13,512 nt of DNA from Gemmatimonadota bacterium (GTDB lineage: Bacteria; Gemmatimonadota; Gemmatimonadetes; Longimicrobiales; RSA9). This document shows, piece after piece, positions 4,164 to 13,450 of this stretch; position 1 is the stretch's first letter; each line of letters opens with the position of its first letter. The translations under genes and the position numbers were made by a program. Location: contig JBBDRO010000062.1 of assembly GCA_040905425.1 (NCBI GenBank), positions 1 through 13,512 on the forward strand, read 5' to 3'. The notes under the pieces are model-generated. The model was not told where the DNA came from, searched no databases, and was given only the letters and a program-made list of their open reading frames with translations.

Positions 4164-4237
4164 TCCCGCGTAGCTCAGCTGGTTAGAGCATCTGACTGTT
4201 AATCAGAGGGTCGTAGGTTCGAATCCTACCGCGGGAG
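4164..4237 (+). tRNA. tRNA-Asn (GTT); CCA not encoded
   Basis: Acceptor stem TCCCGCG/CGCGGGA, D arm GCTC...GAGC, anticodon arm TCTGA-CT-GTT-AA-TCAGA (anticodon 4198-4200), T arm GTAGG-TTCGAAT-CCTAC, discriminator G4237. Confidence 0.98.
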
Positions 4238-4240
4238 CTG

Positions 4241-4488: not shown

Positions 4489-4965
4489 TCATGCATCGCT
4501 CCCGCGGCGCGGTTCGGATTGGCCCGCCGCACCCGTAGCGTTGCGATCCATGAGCCAGCCGTACGTGGCACCGTAGACGAGATGGAGCACCAGCGTCGCG
4601 ATCGCGATCTTCGGTGTCTGGGCGGTGCCAAAGGCGCCCCAGCCGAGGAACGGCAGCACAGCCACCTGCATGACCAGCCACAGGACCACACCCAGGCCAA
4701 CGCCACGCCACACCGTCACCCGCCGCGCAAAGCCCGCGAACACGCCGCCCCAGAAACCGCCGTAGCCCAGGTGCAGAACCACCGCGAGCGCCATGGTCGC
4801 TGCCTGGGGCAGGCTGCCGCCCGTGAGCTTGCCGACGATGGCCGCAGGGATCGGCTTCGGCATGGGGGCCACGCCCGTGAGCATCCCGATGATCATCAGG
4901 GCTGACATGGCGACGGTCGCGCCCACGCCCCAGCCGAATCCCCTTGCGAATCTGCCTCCATCCAT
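4489..4965 (-). CDS. Small 4-TM membrane protein (DUF6789/DUF1440-like)
   Basis: Start re-assigned to ATG 4965 after a GGGAGG RBS, giving 158 aa. It has four hydrophobic helices and the repeated motifs LHLGYG and LHLVYG. Confidence 0.8.
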   Translation of the reverse strand: MDGGRFARGFGWGVGATVAMSALMIIGMLTGVAPMPKPIPAAIVGKLTGGSLPQAATMALAVVLHLGYGGFWGGVFAGFARRVTVWRGVGLGVVLWLVMQVAVLPFLGWGAFGTAQTPKIAIATLVLHLVYGATYGWLMDRNATGAAGQSEPRRGSDA

Positions 4966-5029
4966 GTTTGCCTCCCGTTGAAATAATGAGCGGCGGTGGC
5001 ACCTTACCGGTGAGCGACCAACGTCGCCC

Positions 5030-5404
5030 CTACGCGGCGCACTCCTCCCCGGAGGACCCGGAGCCCTGCAGGAGTATGACAAGCTGGTCCAGCGTGGCCT
5101 GGTTCACGCGGCAGTACAGGTAGCGGCCGTCACGCGCCCGCTCGATCAGCCCGGCATCCTCCAGCTCCTTCAGGTGGTGCGAGAGCGTAGAGGGGGCCAC
5201 GTCCACCAACGCGCCGAGGTCGCCCACGTTGCAACTCGCCGGGTCCAGGCGGCAGTCATCCGCGCGTTCGCTCGTGCAGCAGGCGACGGCCCGCCCGAGT
5301 AGCGTCTGTACGATGGTCAGCCGGTGCGGATGGCCCAGCGCCCGGAACGCACGGCTGAGGTCCTCGCGGCTCGGGGATTCGTGGCCGGTGCTCCTGGCCC
5401 TCAC
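5030..5404 (-). CDS. arsR: ArsR/SmtB-family metalloregulator, Cys-rich
   Basis: [13 protein letters not shown]...NVGDL...[33 protein letters not shown]. The GTG start at 5404 follows GGAGG and overlaps the upstream TGA (GTGA); 124 aa. Confidence 0.9.
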
Positions 5405-6024
5405 CGCCCACCTCCCCGCGCGGTACCCCCATCCGGGTTCAACCTTACTGGGATGCGCACTGACGTGCCCCCCCATCGCACGACCAGGTCGGCGGACGAC
5501 CCGCCAGTCCGGTCGAACCAGAGCGTCAGCAACTCGACCTGCGGCGGCGCTGTGGAAACCGGGACCGTCCCGGAGCCCACGTCCGCCGTCAGGACCTCGG
5601 CGTCGAGGGGGATGCCCCAGCGACGTATCGCGTTGTTCACGACGATCCGCCACTCCTGTTCATGCGGTACGGCGTACAACGTGTGCCACCCGGGCTCCAC
5701 GGCTACGCCGGCGATCGTCGCCCGAACCGGGACATGGACTGCGGTCGCCTCGTCGGCGCCCAGGCGCCACGGCAGGCCGTATGGAACCAGGCGGCCCATG
5801 AGGGGGCGTCCCAGCTTCCGAGGCCGGCTATAGCAGACCTTCACCATGCCTGGATCGAGGGCGACCACGGTCGAATCGAACGGACTCGCCCGCAGCTCCA
5901 GGTCGGCGCGCTCGCCGCGGACCCAGCAGCCGAGCGCGCCGTCCGCACTCTGCGCGCCGGCGCGCTCCGCGGCCGGCGGTAGCAGCAGGAATACGATGCA
6001 GGGCAGGAGAATACGGAAGTGCAT
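5401..6024 (-). CDS. Secreted DUF2911-family protein
   Basis: ATG 6024 after GGAGG; signal peptide [25 protein letters not shown]; motifs [33 protein letters not shown] and IRRWG; 207 aa. Confidence 0.85.
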
Positions 6025-6055
6025 GACGTCGCCTCCAAGATTGGTCGATTTGAAT

Positions 6056-6084
6056 AGTATAGAACTATCGAATTTACAGCGCAA
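6056..6084 (-). promoter_or_regulatory. Sigma70 promoter of the DUF2911-arsR operon, overlapped by an imperfect inverted repeat (candidate ArsR operator, about 6045-6074)
   Basis: The minus strand reads TTGCGC (6084-6079), 17 nt, TATACT (6061-6056). On the plus strand, ttgaATAGT-ataga-ACTATcgaa is an imperfect palindrome, and TCGAT (6045) and ATCGA (6067) flank the -10. Confidence 0.7.
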
Positions 6085-6119
6085 CCCTGCCGCGTCGCAT
6101 ACTCCGCCCCCACCTCTGG

Positions 6120-6148
6120 TTGATTTAGTTGCCACTAAATTATAGATT
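6120..6148 (+). promoter_or_regulatory. Sigma70 promoter of the oxidase-ZIP operon
   Basis: TTGATT (6120-6125), 17 nt, TAGATT (6143-6148). The GGAGG RBS is at 6171-6175. Confidence 0.7.
6123..6140. promoter_or_regulatory. Perfect 7-4-7 palindrome, candidate DtxR/MntR-family operator
   Basis: ATTTAGT-TGCC-ACTAAAT overlaps the -35 element and spacer. The TTTAG-N6-CTAAA core resembles MntR/SirR/TroR-type boxes. Confidence 0.7.
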
Positions 6149-6179
6149 CGGTTAGACCACACAACCGGCAGGAGGGTGG

Positions 6180-7235
6180 ATGGACCCGAAACGATCAGGC
6201 GATTCTCAGCCCTCCGACCGCTTTCCGCCTGTTTCCCGGCGCAACGTGTTGAAGGCCGGCGCGCTCACCGCCGCGGGCCTCGCGACGGCGGGCGCTGTGG
6301 GGCGCCTCTCGAGCCAGACCCCGGACGCGGGATCTGCGCAGATCCTCGAGCACGGTGGCCATGACGGCACGAACGCTCCTGTCGGTCGGATGGAGGGCCG
6401 ATTCGATCCGGTGCGCTACCTGGACGCCTTCGACTACGGCCGTGCCAGCACGCTGCCAGACGGGCGGACATTGCGTGAGTACGAGATGGTGGCAGTGGAT
6501 CGGGAGCTCGAAGTGGCGCCCGGCGTATTCTTCCCCGCCTGGACCTACAACGGCCAGGTGCCGGGGCCGACGATCCGCTGCACGGAAGGAGACCGGCTGC
6601 GCATCCGCTTCGCCAATGCCGGCAGCCACCCCCATACCATCCACTTCCACGGCATTCATGCCGCGGACATGGACGGGGTCTTCGAGATCATCGAACCGGG
6701 CAGCAGCTACGTGTACGAATTTGACGCCGAGCCCTTCGGTCTGCACCTCTACCACTGCCACTCGCTTCCCCTCAAGCGGCACATCCACAAGGGGCTTTAC
6801 GGCGCGTTCATCATCGACCCCCCCGGGGGGCGCCCCCCGGCCCGGGAGATGGTGATGGTGATGAACGGGTTCGACACCAACTTCGACGGCGAGAACGAGG
6901 TCTACGCGATCAACACCGAGGCATTCGCATACCAGACGCAGCCGATCCGGTTGAGGCAGCACGAACTGGCCCGAGTGTATCTTGTCAACCTCACCGAGTT
7001 CGACCTCCTCAACTCGTTCCACCTCCACGGCAATTTCTTCCGCTGCTACCGGACCGGCACGGACCTGGAGCGGCACGACTGGACGGATACGGTGGCGCTC
7101 TGCCAGGGGGAGCGGGCGGTCCTGGAGTTCGCCTTCAAGCACACCGGGCGCTTCATGTTCCACGCGCACCAGAGCGAATTCGCCGAACTGGGCTGGATGG
7201 GAATCTTCGATGTGCAGGGGACGACGAATGCCTGA
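6180..7235 (+). CDS. Tat-exported two-domain multicopper oxidase (type C; T1 Cu in domain 1)
   Basis: Tat motif SRRNVLK followed by an h-region; [13 protein letters not shown]. Domain 1 has HPHTIHFHG and YHCH-x6-HIHKGL; domain 2 has NSFHLHG and MFHAH with no T1 Cys. Confidence 0.92.
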
Positions 7236-8403
7236 GGCTCACCTGCTCCGCCACGGGCCACTGTGGGCCCGGGGCGTCATCCCGCTGGTGCTGCTGGCCA
7301 TCCTCCTAGCCGTCTTCTTCCGGTGGGGGCCCCTGGGTCTGCTCGGCAAGACCTTCCCGCCCGTGGAGGAGCTCACCATCGAGAGGGTGTGGATGCCGGA
7401 GCCCGGCATCATCCATGTGGGCGTCGTGAACGGCGGCCCTGAGGCGGTTACGGTTTCCCAGGTGCTGGTGGATGACGCAATGTGGAGCCACACCCTGGAC
7501 GGCGAGCGAGAGATCGGCCGCTTGGAGAGCCGGACGGTCCGGATCCCGTACCCGTGGGTGGAAGGCGAGCCGCACGACATCAAGCTGCTCACGAGCACCG
7601 GGCTCACGTTCGACGCCACGGTGGATGTCGCGACCCAGGCGCCCGTAATGAACGCGTACTATCTGGGCATGTTTGCTCTCGTCGGTGCGTACGTCGGCGT
7701 GGTGCCCGTGTTGCTGGGCCTGCTCTGGCTGCCCTTCCTGCGGGGGCTCGAGCGCCGCTGGGTCGACTTCTTCCTGGCCTTCACGCTGGGGCTCCTGGTG
7801 TTCCTCGGCGTGGATGCGCTGGTGGAATCGGCGGAGCTGTCCACGGCGGTGCCCGGCGCCTTCATGGGCACGGGGCTGGTCCTCCTGGGGCTGGTCGGTA
7901 CGCCGCTCCTTCTGGAGGCGGGCGGGGGGCTCCGTCGAGCCGCGTCCCCGTCAGCGTTCCGGATCGCGCTGCTGGTGGCCCTGGCGATCGGGCTCCACAA
8001 CCTGGGCGAGGGGCTGGCGATCGGGGGGGCCTACGCCTCGGGTGCCGCCGCGCTGGGTACCTTCCTCGTGATCGGATTCCTGATCCACAACACCACCGAA
8101 GGACTCGCCATCGTGGCTCCCCTGGCCCGTGACCGCGTCCGGATCCGCACGCTCGCCGGACTTGGGCTGTTGGCGGGCGCCCCGACGATCCTTGGCACGT
8201 GGCTGGGAGGATTCGGTGCAACGCCGCTATGGGCCACCCTGTTCCTGGCCATCGGAGCCGGAGCGGTAGCGCAGGTGGTGCTCCAGCTCGTGCGCTTGTT
8301 CCGCCGCGGCCAGGGGCAGGGACTCACCGCCCCTCTGAATGCGGCCGGCGTGCTCGCAGGACTGCTCGTGATGTACGCTACCGGGCTGCTGGTCGCGGCC
8401 TGA
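7228..8403 (+). CDS. ZIP (ZupT/GufA-type) divalent metal transporter with an N-terminal extracytoplasmic domain
   Basis: The true start is ATG 7228, overlapping the oxidase stop (ATGCCTGA); 391 aa. Metal-site helices LHNLGEGLAIG and IHNTTEGLAIV are present, and a soluble beta-rich segment of about 100 aa follows the first TM helix. Confidence 0.92.
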   Translation: MPEAHLLRHGPLWARGVIPLVLLAILLAVFFRWGPLGLLGKTFPPVEELTIERVWMPEPGIIHVGVVNGGPEAVTVSQVLVDDAMWSHTLDGEREIGRLESRTVRIPYPWVEGEPHDIKLLTSTGLTFDATVDVATQAPVMNAYYLGMFALVGAYVGVVPVLLGLLWLPFLRGLERRWVDFFLAFTLGLLVFLGVDALVESAELSTAVPGAFMGTGLVLLGLVGTPLLLEAGGGLRRAASPSAFRIALLVALAIGLHNLGEGLAIGGAYASGAAALGTFLVIGFLIHNTTEGLAIVAPLARDRVRIRTLAGLGLLAGAPTILGTWLGGFGATPLWATLFLAIGAGAVAQVVLQLVRLFRRGQGQGLTAPLNAAGVLAGLLVMYATGLLVAA

Positions 8404-8407
8404 GCGC

Positions 8408-8425
8408 CGGGGCGGCGTGGCCCCG
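8408..8425. terminator. Short GC hairpin between the convergent ZIP and Acr3-like genes
   Basis: CGGGGC-ggcgtg-GCCCCG in the 28 nt gap, with no U-tract. Confidence 0.3.
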
Positions 8426-8431
8426 CTCCGA

Positions 8432-9418
8432 TCAGGAAGCCGGCGACCCGCCCGCCGGATCCAGGCGGTGACGCATGGCCAGCAGCGCCTGGGAAACGAC
8501 AGCGAGCACCGGAAGCTCGATCAAGGGTCCCACCACGAGGGTCAGCGCGATGAGGGGTCGGTCGGGAAATGCGACCACGGCAATGGCGAGCGCCACGGGC
8601 GAGTTCCGCGCCAGCGTGGCGAAGCAGAGACTCGCGCAGTCCGGGTAGGCGAACCGCATTATCCGGGAAACCCAGATGGCCAGGAGCACGGTCGTGAAAA
8701 AGAAGAGGAGGAGTGGAACGAGGAGCCGCAGGACGACGATCGGGTTGTCGAGCAGGACGGTACCCTGTGACGCAAACATGGCGGCGATGGCCAGCGTCAG
8801 GAAGGCGAGCTGTGCACCCGCCACCGCGGGCAAGGCGCGCTCTGTGACCCACGCGCGGCCCCGCACCGCCTCCGCCCCGCGGCGGAATGCCCAGGCCAGC
8901 GCTAACGGCACGACGAGCACGAGCAGCACGCCCTGCACCAGCACACCGTAGTCGATTCGCACGAGCGTCCCCGCGAAGAGCAGCAGGTAGACCGGCAGCA
9001 GGAGCAGCTGGAGGACCAGATGCCAGGGCAGGAGCGCGGTCGAGAGCCGCACATTGCCGCCAGCCAGGCCAGTGAAGACCAGGTACCAGTCCGTGCACGG
9101 CGTGACCATGAGCATGATCAGCCCGATCCAGAGGTCCGGATGGTCTCGCAGGAAGAGCCAACCCAGCCCATAGGCGAACAGCGGCGTCCAGATGAAGTTG
9201 ACGCCCAGGCTCCACCCGGTGAAGCGCAGGTTCCGCAAGGCGGCCCCCATCCGGCGCAGCGGGACGTGGAGGAAGACACTCCACAGCATGGCCATGAGCG
9301 CGGGCACCACCAGATGGATGGCGTGGTCCGCGATCCACGAGAGCTGCCCGGCCGCCAGTCCGGTGAGGACGGCCAGCAGGATCGCGATGGTCTGGCGGGA
9401 GTCGAACAGTCGCGGCAA
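8432..9418 (-). CDS. acr3: Acr3-like arsenite/antimonite efflux permease (SBF/BART superfamily)
   Basis: 328 aa with about 10 TM helices; NFIWTPLFAYGL, LMVTPCTDWYLVFT (conserved Cys), ARNSPVALAIA and VVGPLIELPVL (conserved Glu). The TTG start has GAGG and GAGGAG upstream. Confidence 0.85.
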   Translation of the reverse strand: MPRLFDSRQTIAILLAVLTGLAAGQLSWIADHAIHLVVPALMAMLWSVFLHVPLRRMGAALRNLRFTGWSLGVNFIWTPLFAYGLGWLFLRDHPDLWIGLIMLMVTPCTDWYLVFTGLAGGNVRLSTALLPWHLVLQLLLLPVYLLLFAGTLVRIDYGVLVQGVLLVLVVPLALAWAFRRGAEAVRGRAWVTERALPAVAGAQLAFLTLAIAAMFASQGTVLLDNPIVVLRLLVPLLLFFFTTVLLAIWVSRIMRFAYPDCASLCFATLARNSPVALAIAVVAFPDRPLIALTLVVGPLIELPVLAVVSQALLAMRHRLDPAGGSPAS

Positions 9419-9670: not shown

Positions 9671-10825
9671 ATGCTGGTCTTCACCAGCCTCGCGGCCGCC
9701 GCCTGCGGCGCGGGCTCCGACGCCGTGTTCCTGGCGGAGGTCACGGACAGTGCCGGTGTGCGCATCGCGACGAACGGGCCTGTGTCCGCCGCGCCCGCCA
9801 GCCTCCAACTGGACGCTGAGCCCTATCTCATGCTCGGCGGCCTGCGCCAGGATCTGCGTCTGGAGTTCCAGGGCACCAGCCCGTGGAACAGCGCCGTCGT
9901 GCTCTCCGACGGCCGCCTCGTAGCGAGCAACGGAACCCATGTGAAGTTCCTCGGCCCCGACGGCGCGCTCGAGCGCATCGTGGGGCAGGAGGGGGACGGG
10001 CCAGGGGAGTTCCGGCAGATCCACGGACTCTGCCCGCTGGCGGGCGATTCCGTGGTGGTCTGGGACGGGCGCGTGCGCCGCGTCACCATTCTGGGGCCGC
10101 ACGGCGCCATCGTGCGATCATTTCCCACCACGTACCATGTCATTCGCGACGTCTGCTTCGCCGACGGAGCGCTCCTCGTGCAGGGGGGCAGGATCCCCGA
10201 CTTGGACCCCCCGCGAGCACGCTTCTACACCCTGTCCTCCACGGGCGCGTTGCTGGATTCGCTCCCCGTGCTCCCGGTAGCCTCCTCTGTGCAGGTTCCC
10301 CGGCAGGTGACGTACGCGGTGCACCGGGAAGAGCTCTACGTGGCCGACGCCCGGCATCCCGAAGTCCGGATCTACGACCGCGCTGGCCGGCTCGTGCGCA
10401 TCGTCCGGACACGGGACACCCCGGAGGTGATGACCCCCGAGGAGCTCCACAACGCGAACCCGTGGGAAGGGGAAATGGCGGCCGGGTCGAGATCCGGGGG
10501 CGCCGTCCGGCCTGCGGCCTTTGGTGTCACGCGGCCGCCCCATCACCGCATGCTGGTGGATCCCGAGGGGCGCATTTGGCTCCTGCTGGACATCGTCTTA
10601 CGGACCGACCACCGGAACCTCCTCGGTCCGGCGGATGGCGTGTGGGCCGTCTTCGCGCCCGACGGTCAACTGCTGGCCCGGCTGCCCGTGGATACCGGTG
10701 AGGGGCCCTGGAAGCAAATCGTGGATCTGCGCACGGGCCGGCCGCTCGTGGCCAGCAGGGATATGATGGGCGCGCGGGTGCTGGCGTTTCACGACGTGCT
10801 CGGGCTTCCGCCAGGCGCGCGCTGA
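9671..10825 (+). CDS. Six-bladed beta-propeller (NHL-like) lipoprotein
   Basis: Lipobox-like LAAAA-C, a DSAGVRI motif, GQEGDGPGEFRQI, and blade repeats (LYVAD...IYDRAGRLVRIV; LVDPEGRIWL; VFAPDGQLL). The ORF-track extension to 9020 is antisense to acr3. The start is uncertain. Confidence 0.8.
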   Translation: MLVFTSLAAAACGAGSDAVFLAEVTDSAGVRIATNGPVSAAPASLQLDAEPYLMLGGLRQDLRLEFQGTSPWNSAVVLSDGRLVASNGTHVKFLGPDGALERIVGQEGDGPGEFRQIHGLCPLAGDSVVVWDGRVRRVTILGPHGAIVRSFPTTYHVIRDVCFADGALLVQGGRIPDLDPPRARFYTLSSTGALLDSLPVLPVASSVQVPRQVTYAVHREELYVADARHPEVRIYDRAGRLVRIVRTRDTPEVMTPEELHNANPWEGEMAAGSRSGGAVRPAAFGVTRPPHHRMLVDPEGRIWLLLDIVLRTDHRNLLGPADGVWAVFAPDGQLLARLPVDTGEGPWKQIVDLRTGRPLVASRDMMGARVLAFHDVLGLPPGAR

Positions 10826-11920: not shown

Positions 11921-13450
11921 ATGCGCGACACGGGCCACGGGAGGGCCACCACCACCGCCCAGCGCCAGGCCGCCGCCGCCGAGGGCCAGGCCGCCACGGC
12001 CGAGGTGCTGCGCCAGGAAGGCAGCCGTCTCGTTGAGCGAATGGCGGCCTACCTGGATGACCTGGAGGCCGGACCCGTCTCCACGCGCCACACCGCCGCG
12101 GAGCTGGCCACGCGTTTCGATCTGCCCCTGCCACGCACCGGTCTGCCGGCGCGAGAGGTCTGGGACGAGGTCTGGCGGGACGTGGTGGCCGACGCCATTC
12201 ACCTGGCCCACCCCATGTACCTGGGCCACCAAGTGGCCCCGCCCCTGCCCCATGCCGTTCTGGCCGACGCCCTTGCCAGCCTGCTCAACCAGTCGGTTGC
12301 GGTATGGGAGATGTCCCCCACCGGCACGCCGCTGGAGCGGCGGGTGGTGGCGTGGATGAAGGAGTTGATCGGCTACCCCAAGGCGGCCGACGGCACCACC
12401 GTCTCCGGCGGCAGCGCCGCCAACCTGACGGGCCTGCTGGCGGCGCGTGAGGCCCGCTTTCCAGGCGCCTGGCGCCGCGGCGTGGCGGGCACGCCGGGAC
12501 TGGAGCGTGCGGTGGTGCTCACGGGGGCGCACACGCACTACTCCGTGGAGCGGGCGGTGGGCGTCATGGGGATGGGCGCCGACGCCGTGGTGAGCGTGCC
12601 GGAGCGGGAGCTGCGCATGGACGTGGCGGCCCTGGAGCGGATCCTGGCCGAACTGGCGGCCGCGGACCGCACGCCCCTGGCCATCGTGGCCACGGCCGCC
12701 AGCACCGCCACCGGACTCTTCGATGACCTGGACGCCATTGCCGACGTGGCCGAGGCGCACGGGATCTGGCTGCACGTGGACGGCGCCCACGGCGCCTCCT
12801 TCGTGCTGAGCCCAGCGCTGCGGGACCGCCTGAAGGGCATCGAGCGGGCAGACTCCCTGTCGTGGGATCCGCACAAGATGCTCTTCATGCCCATCTCGGC
12901 CGGCATGGTGCTGGTGCGCGACGGCGCGCACCTGGCCAGCGCCTTCCAGCAGAGCGCGCCCTACCTCTTCCATCCGCGTCCCGGCGAGACGCGCACCCGG
13001 GACATGGGGCAGCACACCCTCCAGTGCTCCCGGCGCCTGGATGCGCTCAAGCTGTGGATCTGCCTGCGCCACTACGGCGTGGAGCATTTTTCGGGGCTGC
13101 TGGAGCACACGGTGGCCAACGCCGCGGCGCTGCACGCCCTCCTCGAGGCGGCGCCGGACTTCGAGGCGGTCCACGCCCCGGAGTCCAACATCCTCTGCTT
13201 CCGCTATCTGCCCGATGGAAGCGGCACCTGGGAGCCGGAGCGGGTGGACGCTCTCCAGGGGACGCTCCGGGAGCGTTACAACGCCGTTGGCGGTGGCTGG
13301 ATCACGACCACGGTGCTCGGGGGGCGGCGCGTGCTGCGGGTCACGCTGATGAATCCCGCCACGGAGCAGCGCCACCTGGAGGCCATGCTCGAGGGACTGC
13401 GGGAGACGGCCGCCAGGATCGCAACCACAACCCGCCAATCTGACTCATGA
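11921..13450 (+). CDS. Group II PLP-dependent amino-acid decarboxylase (DABA/aromatic-L-amino-acid decarboxylase-like)
   Basis: HPMYLGHQV, SGGSAANLTGLLAAR, HYSVERA, WLHVDGAHG, SLSWDPHKM (PLP lysine), TLQCSRRLDALKLW and LRVTLMNP. Confidence 0.93.
   Translation: MRDTGHGRATTTAQRQAAAAEGQAATAEVLRQEGSRLVERMAAYLDDLEAGPVSTRHTAAELATRFDLPLPRTGLPAREVWDEVWRDVVADAIHLAHPMYLGHQVAPPLPHAVLADALASLLNQSVAVWEMSPTGTPLERRVVAWMKELIGYPKAADGTTVSGGSAANLTGLLAAREARFPGAWRRGVAGTPGLERAVVLTGAHTHYSVERAVGVMGMGADAVVSVPERELRMDVAALERILAELAAADRTPLAIVATAASTATGLFDDLDAIADVAEAHGIWLHVDGAHGASFVLSPALRDRLKGIERADSLSWDPHKMLFMPISAGMVLVRDGAHLASAFQQSAPYLFHPRPGETRTRDMGQHTLQCSRRLDALKLWICLRHYGVEHFSGLLEHTVANAAALHALLEAAPDFEAVHAPESNILCFRYLPDGSGTWEPERVDALQGTLRERYNAVGGGWITTTVLGGRRVLRVTLMNPATEQRHLEAMLEGLRETAARIATTTRQSDS

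Follow-up and report, generated by a model that had tools for sequence, protein, structure and literature searches.

We analysed a 13.5 kb stretch of DNA, hereafter the window, from contig JBBDRO010000062.1 of a Gemmatimonadota bacterium. The section of interest, positions 6120–8403, contains two genes on the + strand. These encode a multicopper oxidase (MCO) and a metal transporter of the ZIP family. The open reading frame (ORF) for the MCO occupies positions 6180–7235 (351 amino acids, protein P0001) and that for the ZIP occupies positions 7228–8403 (391 amino acids, P0002). As the original prediction had stated, the genes overlap. The overlap, read from the sequence, is 8 nt long (ATGCCTGA, positions 7228–7235, + strand) and contains both the ZIP start and the MCO stop. 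With this arrangement, translation of the MCO and ZIP is predicted to be coupled. A Shine-Dalgarno-like AGGAGG (6170–6175, + strand) is found 4 nt ahead of the oxidase ATG.

A 155-nt gap separates the pair from a divergent gene. Of the whole region, it alone is AT-rich (GC content 0.51, against ~0.70). Within this gap, 40 nt upstream of the MCO, is the 18 bp sequence ATTTAGTTGCCACTAAAT (6123–6140, no strand assigned). Its 7-nt arms, ATTTAGT and ACTAAAT, are 100% complementary and flank a 4-nt spacer (tgcc). The sequence is a member of a family of TTAG-N6-CTAA boxes of the MntR/DtxR type. The window holds one TTAG-N6-CTAA copy, where 0.01 are expected (200 shuffles). A promoter-like stretch can be read by eye at positions 6120–6148 of the + strand. 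Briefly, TTGATT (6120–6125) is followed by either TATAGA (6141–6146, spacer of 15 nt) or TAGATT (6143–6148, spacer of 17 nt). The palindrome overlaps the -35-like hexamer and occupies the whole spacer between the two elements. It had been described as perfect and as covering one promoter. This is right for the arms. Taken as an 18-mer, the palindrome is near-perfect (8 of 9 pairs complementary), and the promoter-like stretch has no tool match; a sigma-70 scan of positions 5400–8700 returned 0 promoter-like sites. The broader description, of a single operator-bearing module of two genes, is supported.

The oxidase has two recognisable cupredoxin domains. Domain 1 (6534–6824, + strand) matches Pfam Cu-oxidase_3 at residues 119–215 (90 bits) and domain 2 (6885–7217, + strand) matches Cu-oxidase_2 at residues 236–346 (95.5 bits). 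There is no further cupredoxin domain in the 351 residues. Domain 1 contains the motifs HPH-x2-HFH and HCH (192–194), and domain 2 contains HLH (281–283) and HAH (328–330). All eight histidines of the trinuclear copper cluster are present, in four HxH motifs (H155/157, H192/194, H281/283, and H328/330). We compared 61 homologues, each from a locus that also contains its ZIP partner. H152, H155, H157, H192, C193, H194, H201, and L206 are invariant, while conservation is 90% or more at H281, H283, H328, and H330. From the usual order of MCO motifs, we take H152, C193, H201, and the axial L206 to be the type 1 (T1) copper site. By the same assumption, H155, H157, H192, and H194 are presumably the domain 1 share of the trinuclear cluster. 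The full set of T1, T2, and T3 ligands that had been proposed is hence present and conserved. Domain 2 has no cysteine, so there is no second T1 site. Type-C two-domain MCOs are defined by a T1 site in the N-terminal domain alone, as described in PMC13151041. Judged by its motifs, the window oxidase is assigned to this type.

Among solved proteins, the oxidase aligns over nearly its full length with 7rab/7rac and 3gdc (E of ~1e-113 to 1e-115). In the PDB sequence search, 7rab matched residues 47–345 (E 5.8e-115) and 3gdc matched residues 74–346 (E 1.2e-112). Both are deposited as ‘multicopper oxidase’ and the copper motifs are all shared with the window oxidase. A literature search on the codes 7RAB, 7RAC, and 3GDC found no functional study. 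We considered, and rejected, the possibility that the protein is a copper nitrite reductase of the NirK type. The score against TIGR02376 is 103.1 bits, compared with a cut-off of 296.3, and the complete eight-histidine MCO cluster is present. Separately, PDB entry 9cck, a ‘copper-containing nitrite reductase’, matches residues 93–345 of the oxidase at E 3e-55. Classical NirK structures match far more weakly, at only ~1e-28 and in domain 1 alone. In sequence terms, 9cck hints at a clade intermediate between type-C MCOs and NirK.

The N-terminus of the oxidase has features of an exported protein. A twin-arginine translocation (Tat) signal region spans residues 18–37 (6231–6290, + strand), where SRRNVLK (19–25) is followed by an Ala/Gly-rich hydrophobic stretch. 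An S/T-R-R motif is found in nearly all of the oxidase homologues printed. The Tat signal claimed in the original prediction is thus there as a motif and recurs in relatives; both hidden Markov models fall just below their cut-offs (Pfam TAT_signal, 20.9 versus 22.7 bits; TIGR01409, 16.3 versus 16.7). The short histidine stretch EHGGH, also noted in that prediction, is at residues 57–61 (6348–6362, + strand). It lies in a conserved, histidine-containing linker at the mature N-terminus. We examined the 35 residues ahead of a conserved FDP motif in 52 homologous ORFs. At least two histidines were found in 45, and at least one in all 52. Ahead of the oxidase fold, the linker motif is often H-x-x-H-D/H-x-M.

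The ZIP protein scores 31.3 bits against Pfam Zip (E 1.6e-07), in residues 246–329 only, and 38.6 bits against NCBIfam ZupT, where the cut-off is 252. Since the Pfam score is below the gathering threshold of 35.1, membership of the family was checked by fold and motifs. An AlphaFold model, built on an alignment of 67 diverse sequences, has a pLDDT of 91.8. It comprises a helix (residues 12–33), a seven-strand beta domain (49–132), and eight helices (143–390). The top nine PDB matches from Foldseek are all BbZIP, the Bordetella ZIP (TMt 0.53–0.67, E 7e-07 to 4e-05). The eight-helix core is encoded by positions 7654–8397 (+ strand). Its HNLGEG (257–262) and HNTTEG (287–292) motifs, in helices 4 and 5, align with the HNxxEG and QDxxEG helices of BbZIP. 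Across the 67 sequences, conservation is 90% or more at residues H257, N258, E261, H287, N288, and E291. No match to the FTR1 family was found by Pfam in this protein. Going by the modelled fold and the motifs, the partner permease is a ZIP.

Two parts of this ZIP are absent from BbZIP (5tsa), which matches only the core, with TMt up to 0.67. These are an extra transmembrane helix (TM0, residues 12–33; 7261–7326, + strand) and the beta domain, a seven-strand sandwich (residues 49–132; 7372–7623, + strand) with a pLDDT of 92.9 when modelled separately. The additional soluble domain that had been claimed is therefore apparent in the model. ZIP cores start outside the cytoplasm. Hence, TM0 should place the beta-sandwich in the periplasm, which is the predicted compartment of the oxidase. 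The best Foldseek matches of the sandwich are the beta-sandwiches of archaeal pilins, FlaF, and FlaG (TMq 0.63–0.69). Invariant residues in the N-terminal region are N68, G70, Q78, W110, A135, and P139; no histidine, cysteine, or methionine is conserved. A role as metal chaperone was considered and rejected, since matches to PCuAC folds are weaker (TMq 0.56–0.60) and there are no conserved histidine, cysteine, or methionine residues. For the latter reason, we think that the sandwich probably serves in docking or has a structural purpose, as opposed to being a classical soft-metal site. A protein-atlas search with the N-terminal domain gave scores of 0.77–0.80, which serve as a lead only.

To place the pair in context, we surveyed other genomes. 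The survey was a single genome scan made from the ZIP side, using an alignment of 67 representatives, and we kept the best 80 of at least 595 confirmed loci. Individual loci are given L numbers where they need to be told apart. In the fetched loci the oxidase was located by tblastn, so the survey runs from ZIP to MCO. Neighbouring genes were called as ORFs, with a filter on GC content at third codon positions, then clustered, and cluster representatives were annotated. In 77 of the 80 loci an MCO homologue (46–81% identity) is directly upstream of the ZIP and on the same strand. The other three (L044, L049, and L069) are uninformative, with the ZIP start no more than 184 nt from a contig end. 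The oxidase is itself truncated by a contig end in 5 of the 77, and an additional ORF lies between MCO and ZIP in L043. By a nearest-start heuristic, applied to the 76 loci in which both genes are present, start and stop codons overlap in 41 (8 nt in 20 cases, 4 nt in nine, 11 nt in seven, and 1 nt in five). Most of the remaining 35 have a gap of less than 30 nt. Fused oxidase-ZIP proteins were considered as evidence of coupling and set aside. Briefly, there were three matches among longer proteins, two with MCO domains. The proteins P0391 (741 aa) and P0392 (690 aa) lose the copper motifs of domain 2 and run into the ZIP frame, and so are frameshift artefacts.

The loci derive from at least a dozen phyla, including Gemmatimonadota, Acidobacteriota, Chloroflexota, Actinomycetota, Bacillota, Methylomirabilota, Poribacteria, Latescibacterota, and Armatimonadota, and from cultured Paenibacillus, Cohnella, and Fictibacillus. 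In a plasmid collection, 138 records have the ZIP and 132 have the MCO (E≤1e-60). ZIP and MCO counts agree closely in Pseudosulfitobacter (37/37), Rhodococcus (29/30), Sinorhizobium (10/10), Shinella (6/6), Sulfitobacter (6/6), and Halomarina (3/3). MCO and ZIP are adjacent in all six annotated regions that we inspected, one of which is from a haloarchaeon. Carriers of the pair thus include soil, marine, and sponge-associated bacteria, cyanobacteria, conjugative plasmids, and haloarchaea. In database searches, the ZIP had at least 7257 matches among 8000 candidates and the oxidase had at least 8000; the ZIP also matched 345 clusters at 50% identity (E≤1e-30). We conclude that the MCO and ZIP form a strictly conserved unit and not a local accident. 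The original prediction had expected the pair in other genomes, and asked for a survey of gene neighbourhoods, but had added that an oxidase is not the normal partner of a ZIP. For this subfamily the opposite applies; it is essentially always partnered.

One box recurs in the 180 nt upstream of the oxidases. We searched for TTAG-N6-CTAA in 72 informative sequences, comprising 71 loci and the window. The box is present at the operon promoter in 51 of these. In 33 it is no more than 250 nt upstream of the MCO. In a further 16 it is 436–766 nt upstream, which places it ahead of a regulator gene that precedes the MCO. In L002, the box fronts an operon of regulator, Nramp, MCO, and ZIP genes, and in L038 it is at +10 of the projected start. 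Note that the box is rare, with only 60 copies in all 81 sequences (901,297 nt). Of the 31 DtxR-like genes in these loci, 16 start no more than 100 nt from a box. Two boxes were found in the intergenic region of the Deinococcus plasmid, and one in that of the Sulfitobacter plasmid. In the literature, the enterobacterial MntR consensus is given as AACATAGCnnnnGCTATGTT, with TAG-N6-CTA geometry (PMC1698941), and the MntR dimer of Bacillus subtilis is reported to bind 18 bp made up of two 9-bp inverted repeats (PMC11882963). The window box shares the TAG-N6-CTA geometry of the enterobacterial consensus. The window palindrome is hence a predicted operator, from a conserved box family of the MntR/DtxR type.

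Regulator genes near the pair are of the matching kind. A DtxR-family repressor gene, whose product has Fe_dep_repress, Fe_dep_repr_C, and FeoA domains, is no more than 6 kb away in 26 of the 80 loci. It is usually directly before the MCO and on the same strand. DtxR/MntR-family repressors are also beside the pair on plasmids of Deinococcus, Sulfitobacter, Sinorhizobium, and Halomarina. RefSeq names the divergent neighbour ‘mntR’ on the Sulfitobacter pontiacus and Sinorhizobium meliloti plasmids; of these two, the box was read in the Sulfitobacter locus only. We scanned seven regulators, four of the DtxR family and three long acidobacterial ORFs, and the best NCBIfam model was the Thermus-type MntR (163–215 bits, versus 78–105 for DtxR). 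For the regulator in L047, comparison with solved proteins ranks 5zr4, 8pvt, ScaR, and SloR closest, with IdeR and DtxR behind them. Iron-sensing DtxR is described as using Met10 and Cys102, and manganese-sensing MntR as using Asp8 and Glu99 (PMC4805248). At the position of DtxR Met10, all 21 scorable regulators have Asp. At that of Cys102, all 23 have Glu or Asp. We read this as a manganese-type ligand pattern in the neighbouring regulators.

The same residues bear on whether the pair takes up iron, in the manner of Fet3/Ftr1 or EfeUOB. In this scenario, a ferroxidase would pass iron to the permease under control of an iron-sensing repressor of the DtxR/IdeR type. DtxR-family regulators are classic iron sensors and many MCOs are ferroxidases. 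Moreover, L070 and L079 have FeoB-type genes within a few genes of the pair, behind the same TTAG-N6-CTAA box. However, Asp and Glu/Asp replace Met10 and Cys102 in every regulator that could be scored, and both NCBIfam and the PDB put the regulators nearer to manganese sensors. The permease is a ZIP, which transports divalent ions, and not an FTR1 protein with REXXE motifs, and oxidation of Fe2+ would take away the substrate of a ZIP. We consider uptake of iron by this route improbable.

Other genes sharing the locus also bear on function. MntH, of the Nramp family, is found in four loci (566.7 bits, cut-off 430). In ten Gemmatimonadota loci, mostly Gemmatimonadaceae or Gemmatimonadales, a third operon gene directly follows the ZIP (L001, L002, L004–L008, L012, L016, and L035; for example, L012 7107–7892 and L006 7149–8006). 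The gene is absent from the window. Its product is a Phenol_MetA_deg-like protein of ~260 aa, with a C-terminal Phe (PF13557, 25.9 bits for L006), and is probably an outer-membrane beta-barrel channel. Such a barrel, if real, would complete a route across the envelope. Together, the MntR-type box, the regulators, and the MntH and barrel neighbours suggest that the module belongs to a manganese regulon, induced when manganese is low. On balance, we think that the pair is probably a widespread, translationally coupled uptake module of the DtxR/MntR-family manganese regulon, and we hold this view with modest confidence. A role in manganese or iron homeostasis had been suggested before, and such a role fits the regulators, the box, and the MntH neighbours.

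A mechanism can be proposed on this basis. With enough Mn2+ in the cytoplasm, the 18 bp box over the promoter would be bound by an MntR-type repressor, the product of a gene elsewhere in the genome, and the operon would be silent. A shortage of Mn2+ would lead to transcription. The ZIP would then reside in the inner membrane, with TM0 holding the beta-sandwich in the periplasm, and would import a divalent metal, most likely Mn2+. The oxidase would be exported by the Tat system, folded and with its coppers, to serve as a metallo-oxidase on the periplasmic metal pool. Our confidence declines along this chain. It is greatest for binding of a repressor to the box and then falls, successively, for Mn2+ as the signal, import of Mn2+ by the ZIP, and action of the oxidase on the metal pool. 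For the last step, our preferred guess is that the oxidase keeps Fe2+ and Cu+ oxidised, so that neither enters or poisons the ZIP. It may dock on the beta-sandwich of the ZIP while doing so. We offer this role, of the oxidase supporting Mn2+ uptake by acting on the metal pool and perhaps docked, only as a tentative suggestion, with rather worse than even chances.

A different task for the oxidase is suggested by current annotation. The two proteins are listed either as ‘multicopper oxidase domain-containing protein’ and ‘metal transporter’, or under the misleading names ‘manganese oxidase’ and ‘ZupT’. The enzyme might then be a true manganese oxidase, as the label ‘moxA’ implies, making Mn(III/IV) oxides beside a ZIP that is merely a co-regulated manganese transporter. 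Several close homologues carry the JGI label ‘manganese oxidase’. Furthermore, KW1-S21_123, the metagenome-assembled genome (MAG) from which L014 derives, is listed among moxA carriers (PMC10367259), and the gene meant is presumably that in L014. The label, though, is an automatic orthology name with no assay behind it. An enzyme that precipitates manganese would be counter-productive if derepressed at low manganese, and no accessory genes of known manganese oxidase systems were seen in the neighbourhoods of the 80 loci. We regard a manganese oxidase of this sort as very improbable.

An arrangement like that in the window exists in ammonia-oxidising archaea, and Kerou et al. (2016) is reportedly a source for it. 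In these organisms, a two-domain MCO called MCO1, likewise with T1, T2, and T3 sites and an axial Leu, adjoins a ZIP permease, and a role in uptake has been proposed (Reyes et al. 2020, PMC7785015; Daebeler et al. 2018, PMC5817080). With the archaeal linkage in print, the pair as such is not new, and the novelty of the linkage that the original prediction implied does not stand. Agreement between the archaeal pair (NVIE_000600 and NVIE_000590) and the window pair consists of gene order and the axial Leu. A further lead concerns the N-terminal domain of the ZIP, which has a protein-atlas score of 0.80 to clusters with few assigned members, most often from Nitrososphaerota. While MCO1 has been described as restricted to Thaumarchaeota, the pair reported here extends to at least a dozen bacterial phyla and to haloarchaea. 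Also, the published hypothesis for the archaeal pair is copper uptake, whereas the operator and neighbouring regulators here are manganese-type.

Applied to bacteria, the copper hypothesis holds that the oxidase turns Cu+ into Cu2+ outside the cytoplasm and that the ZIP imports the Cu2+. This mechanism was proposed by the authors of PMC7785015, who state that validation is needed. They report that, in Nitrososphaera viennensis limited for copper, MCO1 and the adjacent permease are mildly induced, with log2 fold changes of 0.81 and 1.33, respectively (PMC7785015). The window oxidase has an axial Leu at the T1 site (L206), as does archaeal MCO1. Small cupredoxin genes can follow the ZIP; products are a Cupredoxin_1-type protein of ~134 aa in L031, L047, and L080, and a plastocyanin/azurin-family protein in Halomarina (L084 5143–5553). 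There is also a CopD gene near the pair on the Rhodococcus plasmid pREL1. Conversely, no copper sensor of the CsoR, CueR, or CopY type is among the neighbour families recurring in at least three loci. The operator and adjacent regulators are of the MntR/DtxR type, with manganese-type ligand residues, and the gene that joins the pair in the L002 operon is MntH, rather than a copper gene. We judge that copper acquisition is improbable, to much the same degree as uptake of iron.

The archaeal pair also enters into a bolder version of the manganese proposal. The MCO and ZIP might form a manganese importer of a third class, in addition to MntH and MntABC. Here, a trimeric oxidase would be docked on the beta-sandwich, with the redox step obligatorily coupled to transport. 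Archaeal MCO1 and its ZIP would then also handle manganese, and not copper. The redox step could gate the ZIP for Mn2+ against Fe2+ and Cu+. Alternatively, manganese could pass via an oxidised intermediate, as iron does with Fet3. We think it unlikely that the full version is correct.

Returning to the simpler proposal, an uptake module within the manganese regulon, several observations count against it. First, 21 of the 72 informative sequences lack the box and have other palindromes instead. In Acidobacteriota the alternative is TTTTGA-N4-TCAAAA, next to a divergent DtxR-like gene. In three Bacillota loci it is a palindrome of the GTT(G/T)C...GGAAAC type, which seems to resemble the MntR operator of B. 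subtilis. Second, the scanned regulators are below the MntR equivalog cut-off (350), and DtxR-family proteins with oxygen-donor sites can respond to other metals. Third, the 13.5 kb of the window contains no regulator of the DtxR/MntR family. The nearest regulator is an ArsR/SmtB protein, encoded by the divergent operon (68.2 bits, cut-off 55). Fourth, as described above, the transporter scores below the Pfam Zip gathering threshold, and the metal specificity of ZIPs cannot be read from sequence. Fifth, a periplasmic oxidase has no obvious job in the import of Mn2+; we infer a role for it on behalf of the transporter. The small cupredoxins, and a Rieske 2Fe-2S protein on pREL1 (L081 7149–7568), are possible electron partners or donors of the oxidase. 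Sixth, in the literature consulted, experiments on such a pair are confined to archaea and deal with copper (PMC7785015). Finally, genes for P1B-ATPases, CDF proteins, ArsR, and CopD flank the pair in Cohnella, Fictibacillus, Pseudanabaena, and on pREL1. These contexts look like metal-resistance islands and not uptake loci.

The last point could mean that the pair is a module for metal stress or detoxification. If so, it would be controlled by ArsR/SmtB and induced by metal excess, with the oxidase detoxifying Cu+ or Fe2+ and the ZIP rebalancing another metal. Consistent with this are the ArsR/SmtB gene in the divergent operon of the window and the ArsR, P1B-type ATPase, and CDF genes flanking the pair in L073, L075, pREL1, and Pseudanabaena. 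In addition, the 248 nt preceding the pREL1 oxidase contain no TTAG-N6-CTAA. On the other hand, ArsR genes occur in only 3 of the 80 loci, compared with 26 for DtxR/MntR-type genes, and the window palindrome matches the box that fronts MntR-like genes themselves. ZIPs, which import metal into the cytoplasm, would also be an odd choice. A detoxification module is, in our assessment, quite improbable.

The pair can be compared with better known systems. In Fet3-Ftr1, EfeUOB, and FtrABCD, a membrane permease for a redox-active metal has a genetically linked oxidase that acts outside the cytoplasm. An extracytoplasmic oxidase and a permease are common to all. Here, however, the permease is a ZIP and not FTR1/EfeU. 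The oxidase appears, from its sequence, to be a two-domain MCO of the trimeric type, as opposed to the three-domain Fet3 or a cupredoxin/peroxidase, and the regulators point to manganese instead of iron. Similarity to the MntR-regulon importers MntH and MntABC/SitABCD is in control; these likewise have a TAG-N6-CTA promoter box and often an adjacent regulator gene. Indeed, MntH shares a locus with the pair in four cases, and an operon in L002. Unlike MntH and MntABC, the transporter is a ZIP with an added helix and beta-sandwich, and has an obligatory oxidase partner.

We also searched the literature, in a set that most subscription papers fall outside. Neither a ZIP with TM0 and beta-sandwich, nor an oxidase partner, was found in the MntR regulons described there. 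Likewise, we found no description of the bacterial and haloarchaeal spread of the pair, of its MntR-type operator and regulators, or of TM0 and the beta-sandwich of the ZIP, and no functional test. The earlier view that the bacterial pair lacks a functional characterisation agrees with this search. Overall, the original interpretation is partly supported.

Remaining features of the window are as follows. On the - strand, the divergent operon encodes a DUF2911 protein with a signal peptide (5401–6024), the ArsR/SmtB metalloregulator (within 5030–5653), and a DUF6789 membrane protein (within 4489–5082). At the side of the intergenic region nearest this operon is a short inverted repeat, ATAGT-N5-ACTAT (~6054–6068, in the interval 6040–6078), which may be an ArsR site. 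A gene for tRNA-Asn (GTT; 4164–4238, + strand) is located between an FAD-dependent oxidoreductase gene and the DUF6789 gene. Convergent to the ZIP, and after it, is a gene for an SBF/ACR3-like transporter (8432–9418, - strand; Pfam SBF, 91 bits; ACR3 model, 128.6 bits versus a cut-off of 282.8). A ‘bile acid:sodium symporter’ is also near the pair on the Halomarina plasmid (L084 7293–8285). Recurrence of an SBF-type transporter may be coincidence.

Some observations concern the other loci. Control of the pair by a riboswitch was considered and rejected. An Rfam scan of the window and nine loci gave matches to tRNA and to one unrelated c-di-GMP riboswitch, with nothing else and none at the pair. 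The riboswitch, c-di-GMP-I-GGC, is at 9926–10015 (+ strand) of L073, from Cohnella thermotolerans (70 bits, gathering threshold 59). A distant second MCO-like gene (24–35% identity to the window oxidase) is a few kb downstream of the pair in L010 (9213–9557) and in L025, L026, and L032 (~12130–12890, - strand). In three MAGs of acidobacterial type, whose loci use the TTTTGA-N4-TCAAAA box, there is a single ORF of 465–492 aa (L042 3350–4825, L064 3388–4785, and L080 3285–4763, - strand). Each has three DtxR/MntR domains followed by ~250 aa sharing 37% identity with the barrel-like protein (E 6e-42). From their sequences, these are apparent fusions of a cytoplasmic repressor with an outer-membrane-type domain.

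The MCO-ZIP module is common and widely distributed, yet is annotated generically or mislabelled. If it is an importer of the manganese regulon with an obligatory oxidase, this would add a new route to bacterial manganese homeostasis and would provide a physiological role for two-domain type-C MCOs. The copper hypothesis for the conserved archaeal MCO1-ZIP pair would also gain a competitor that can be tested. Finally, such an importer would call for caution when these genes are used, in metagenomes, as markers of manganese oxidation or zinc uptake.

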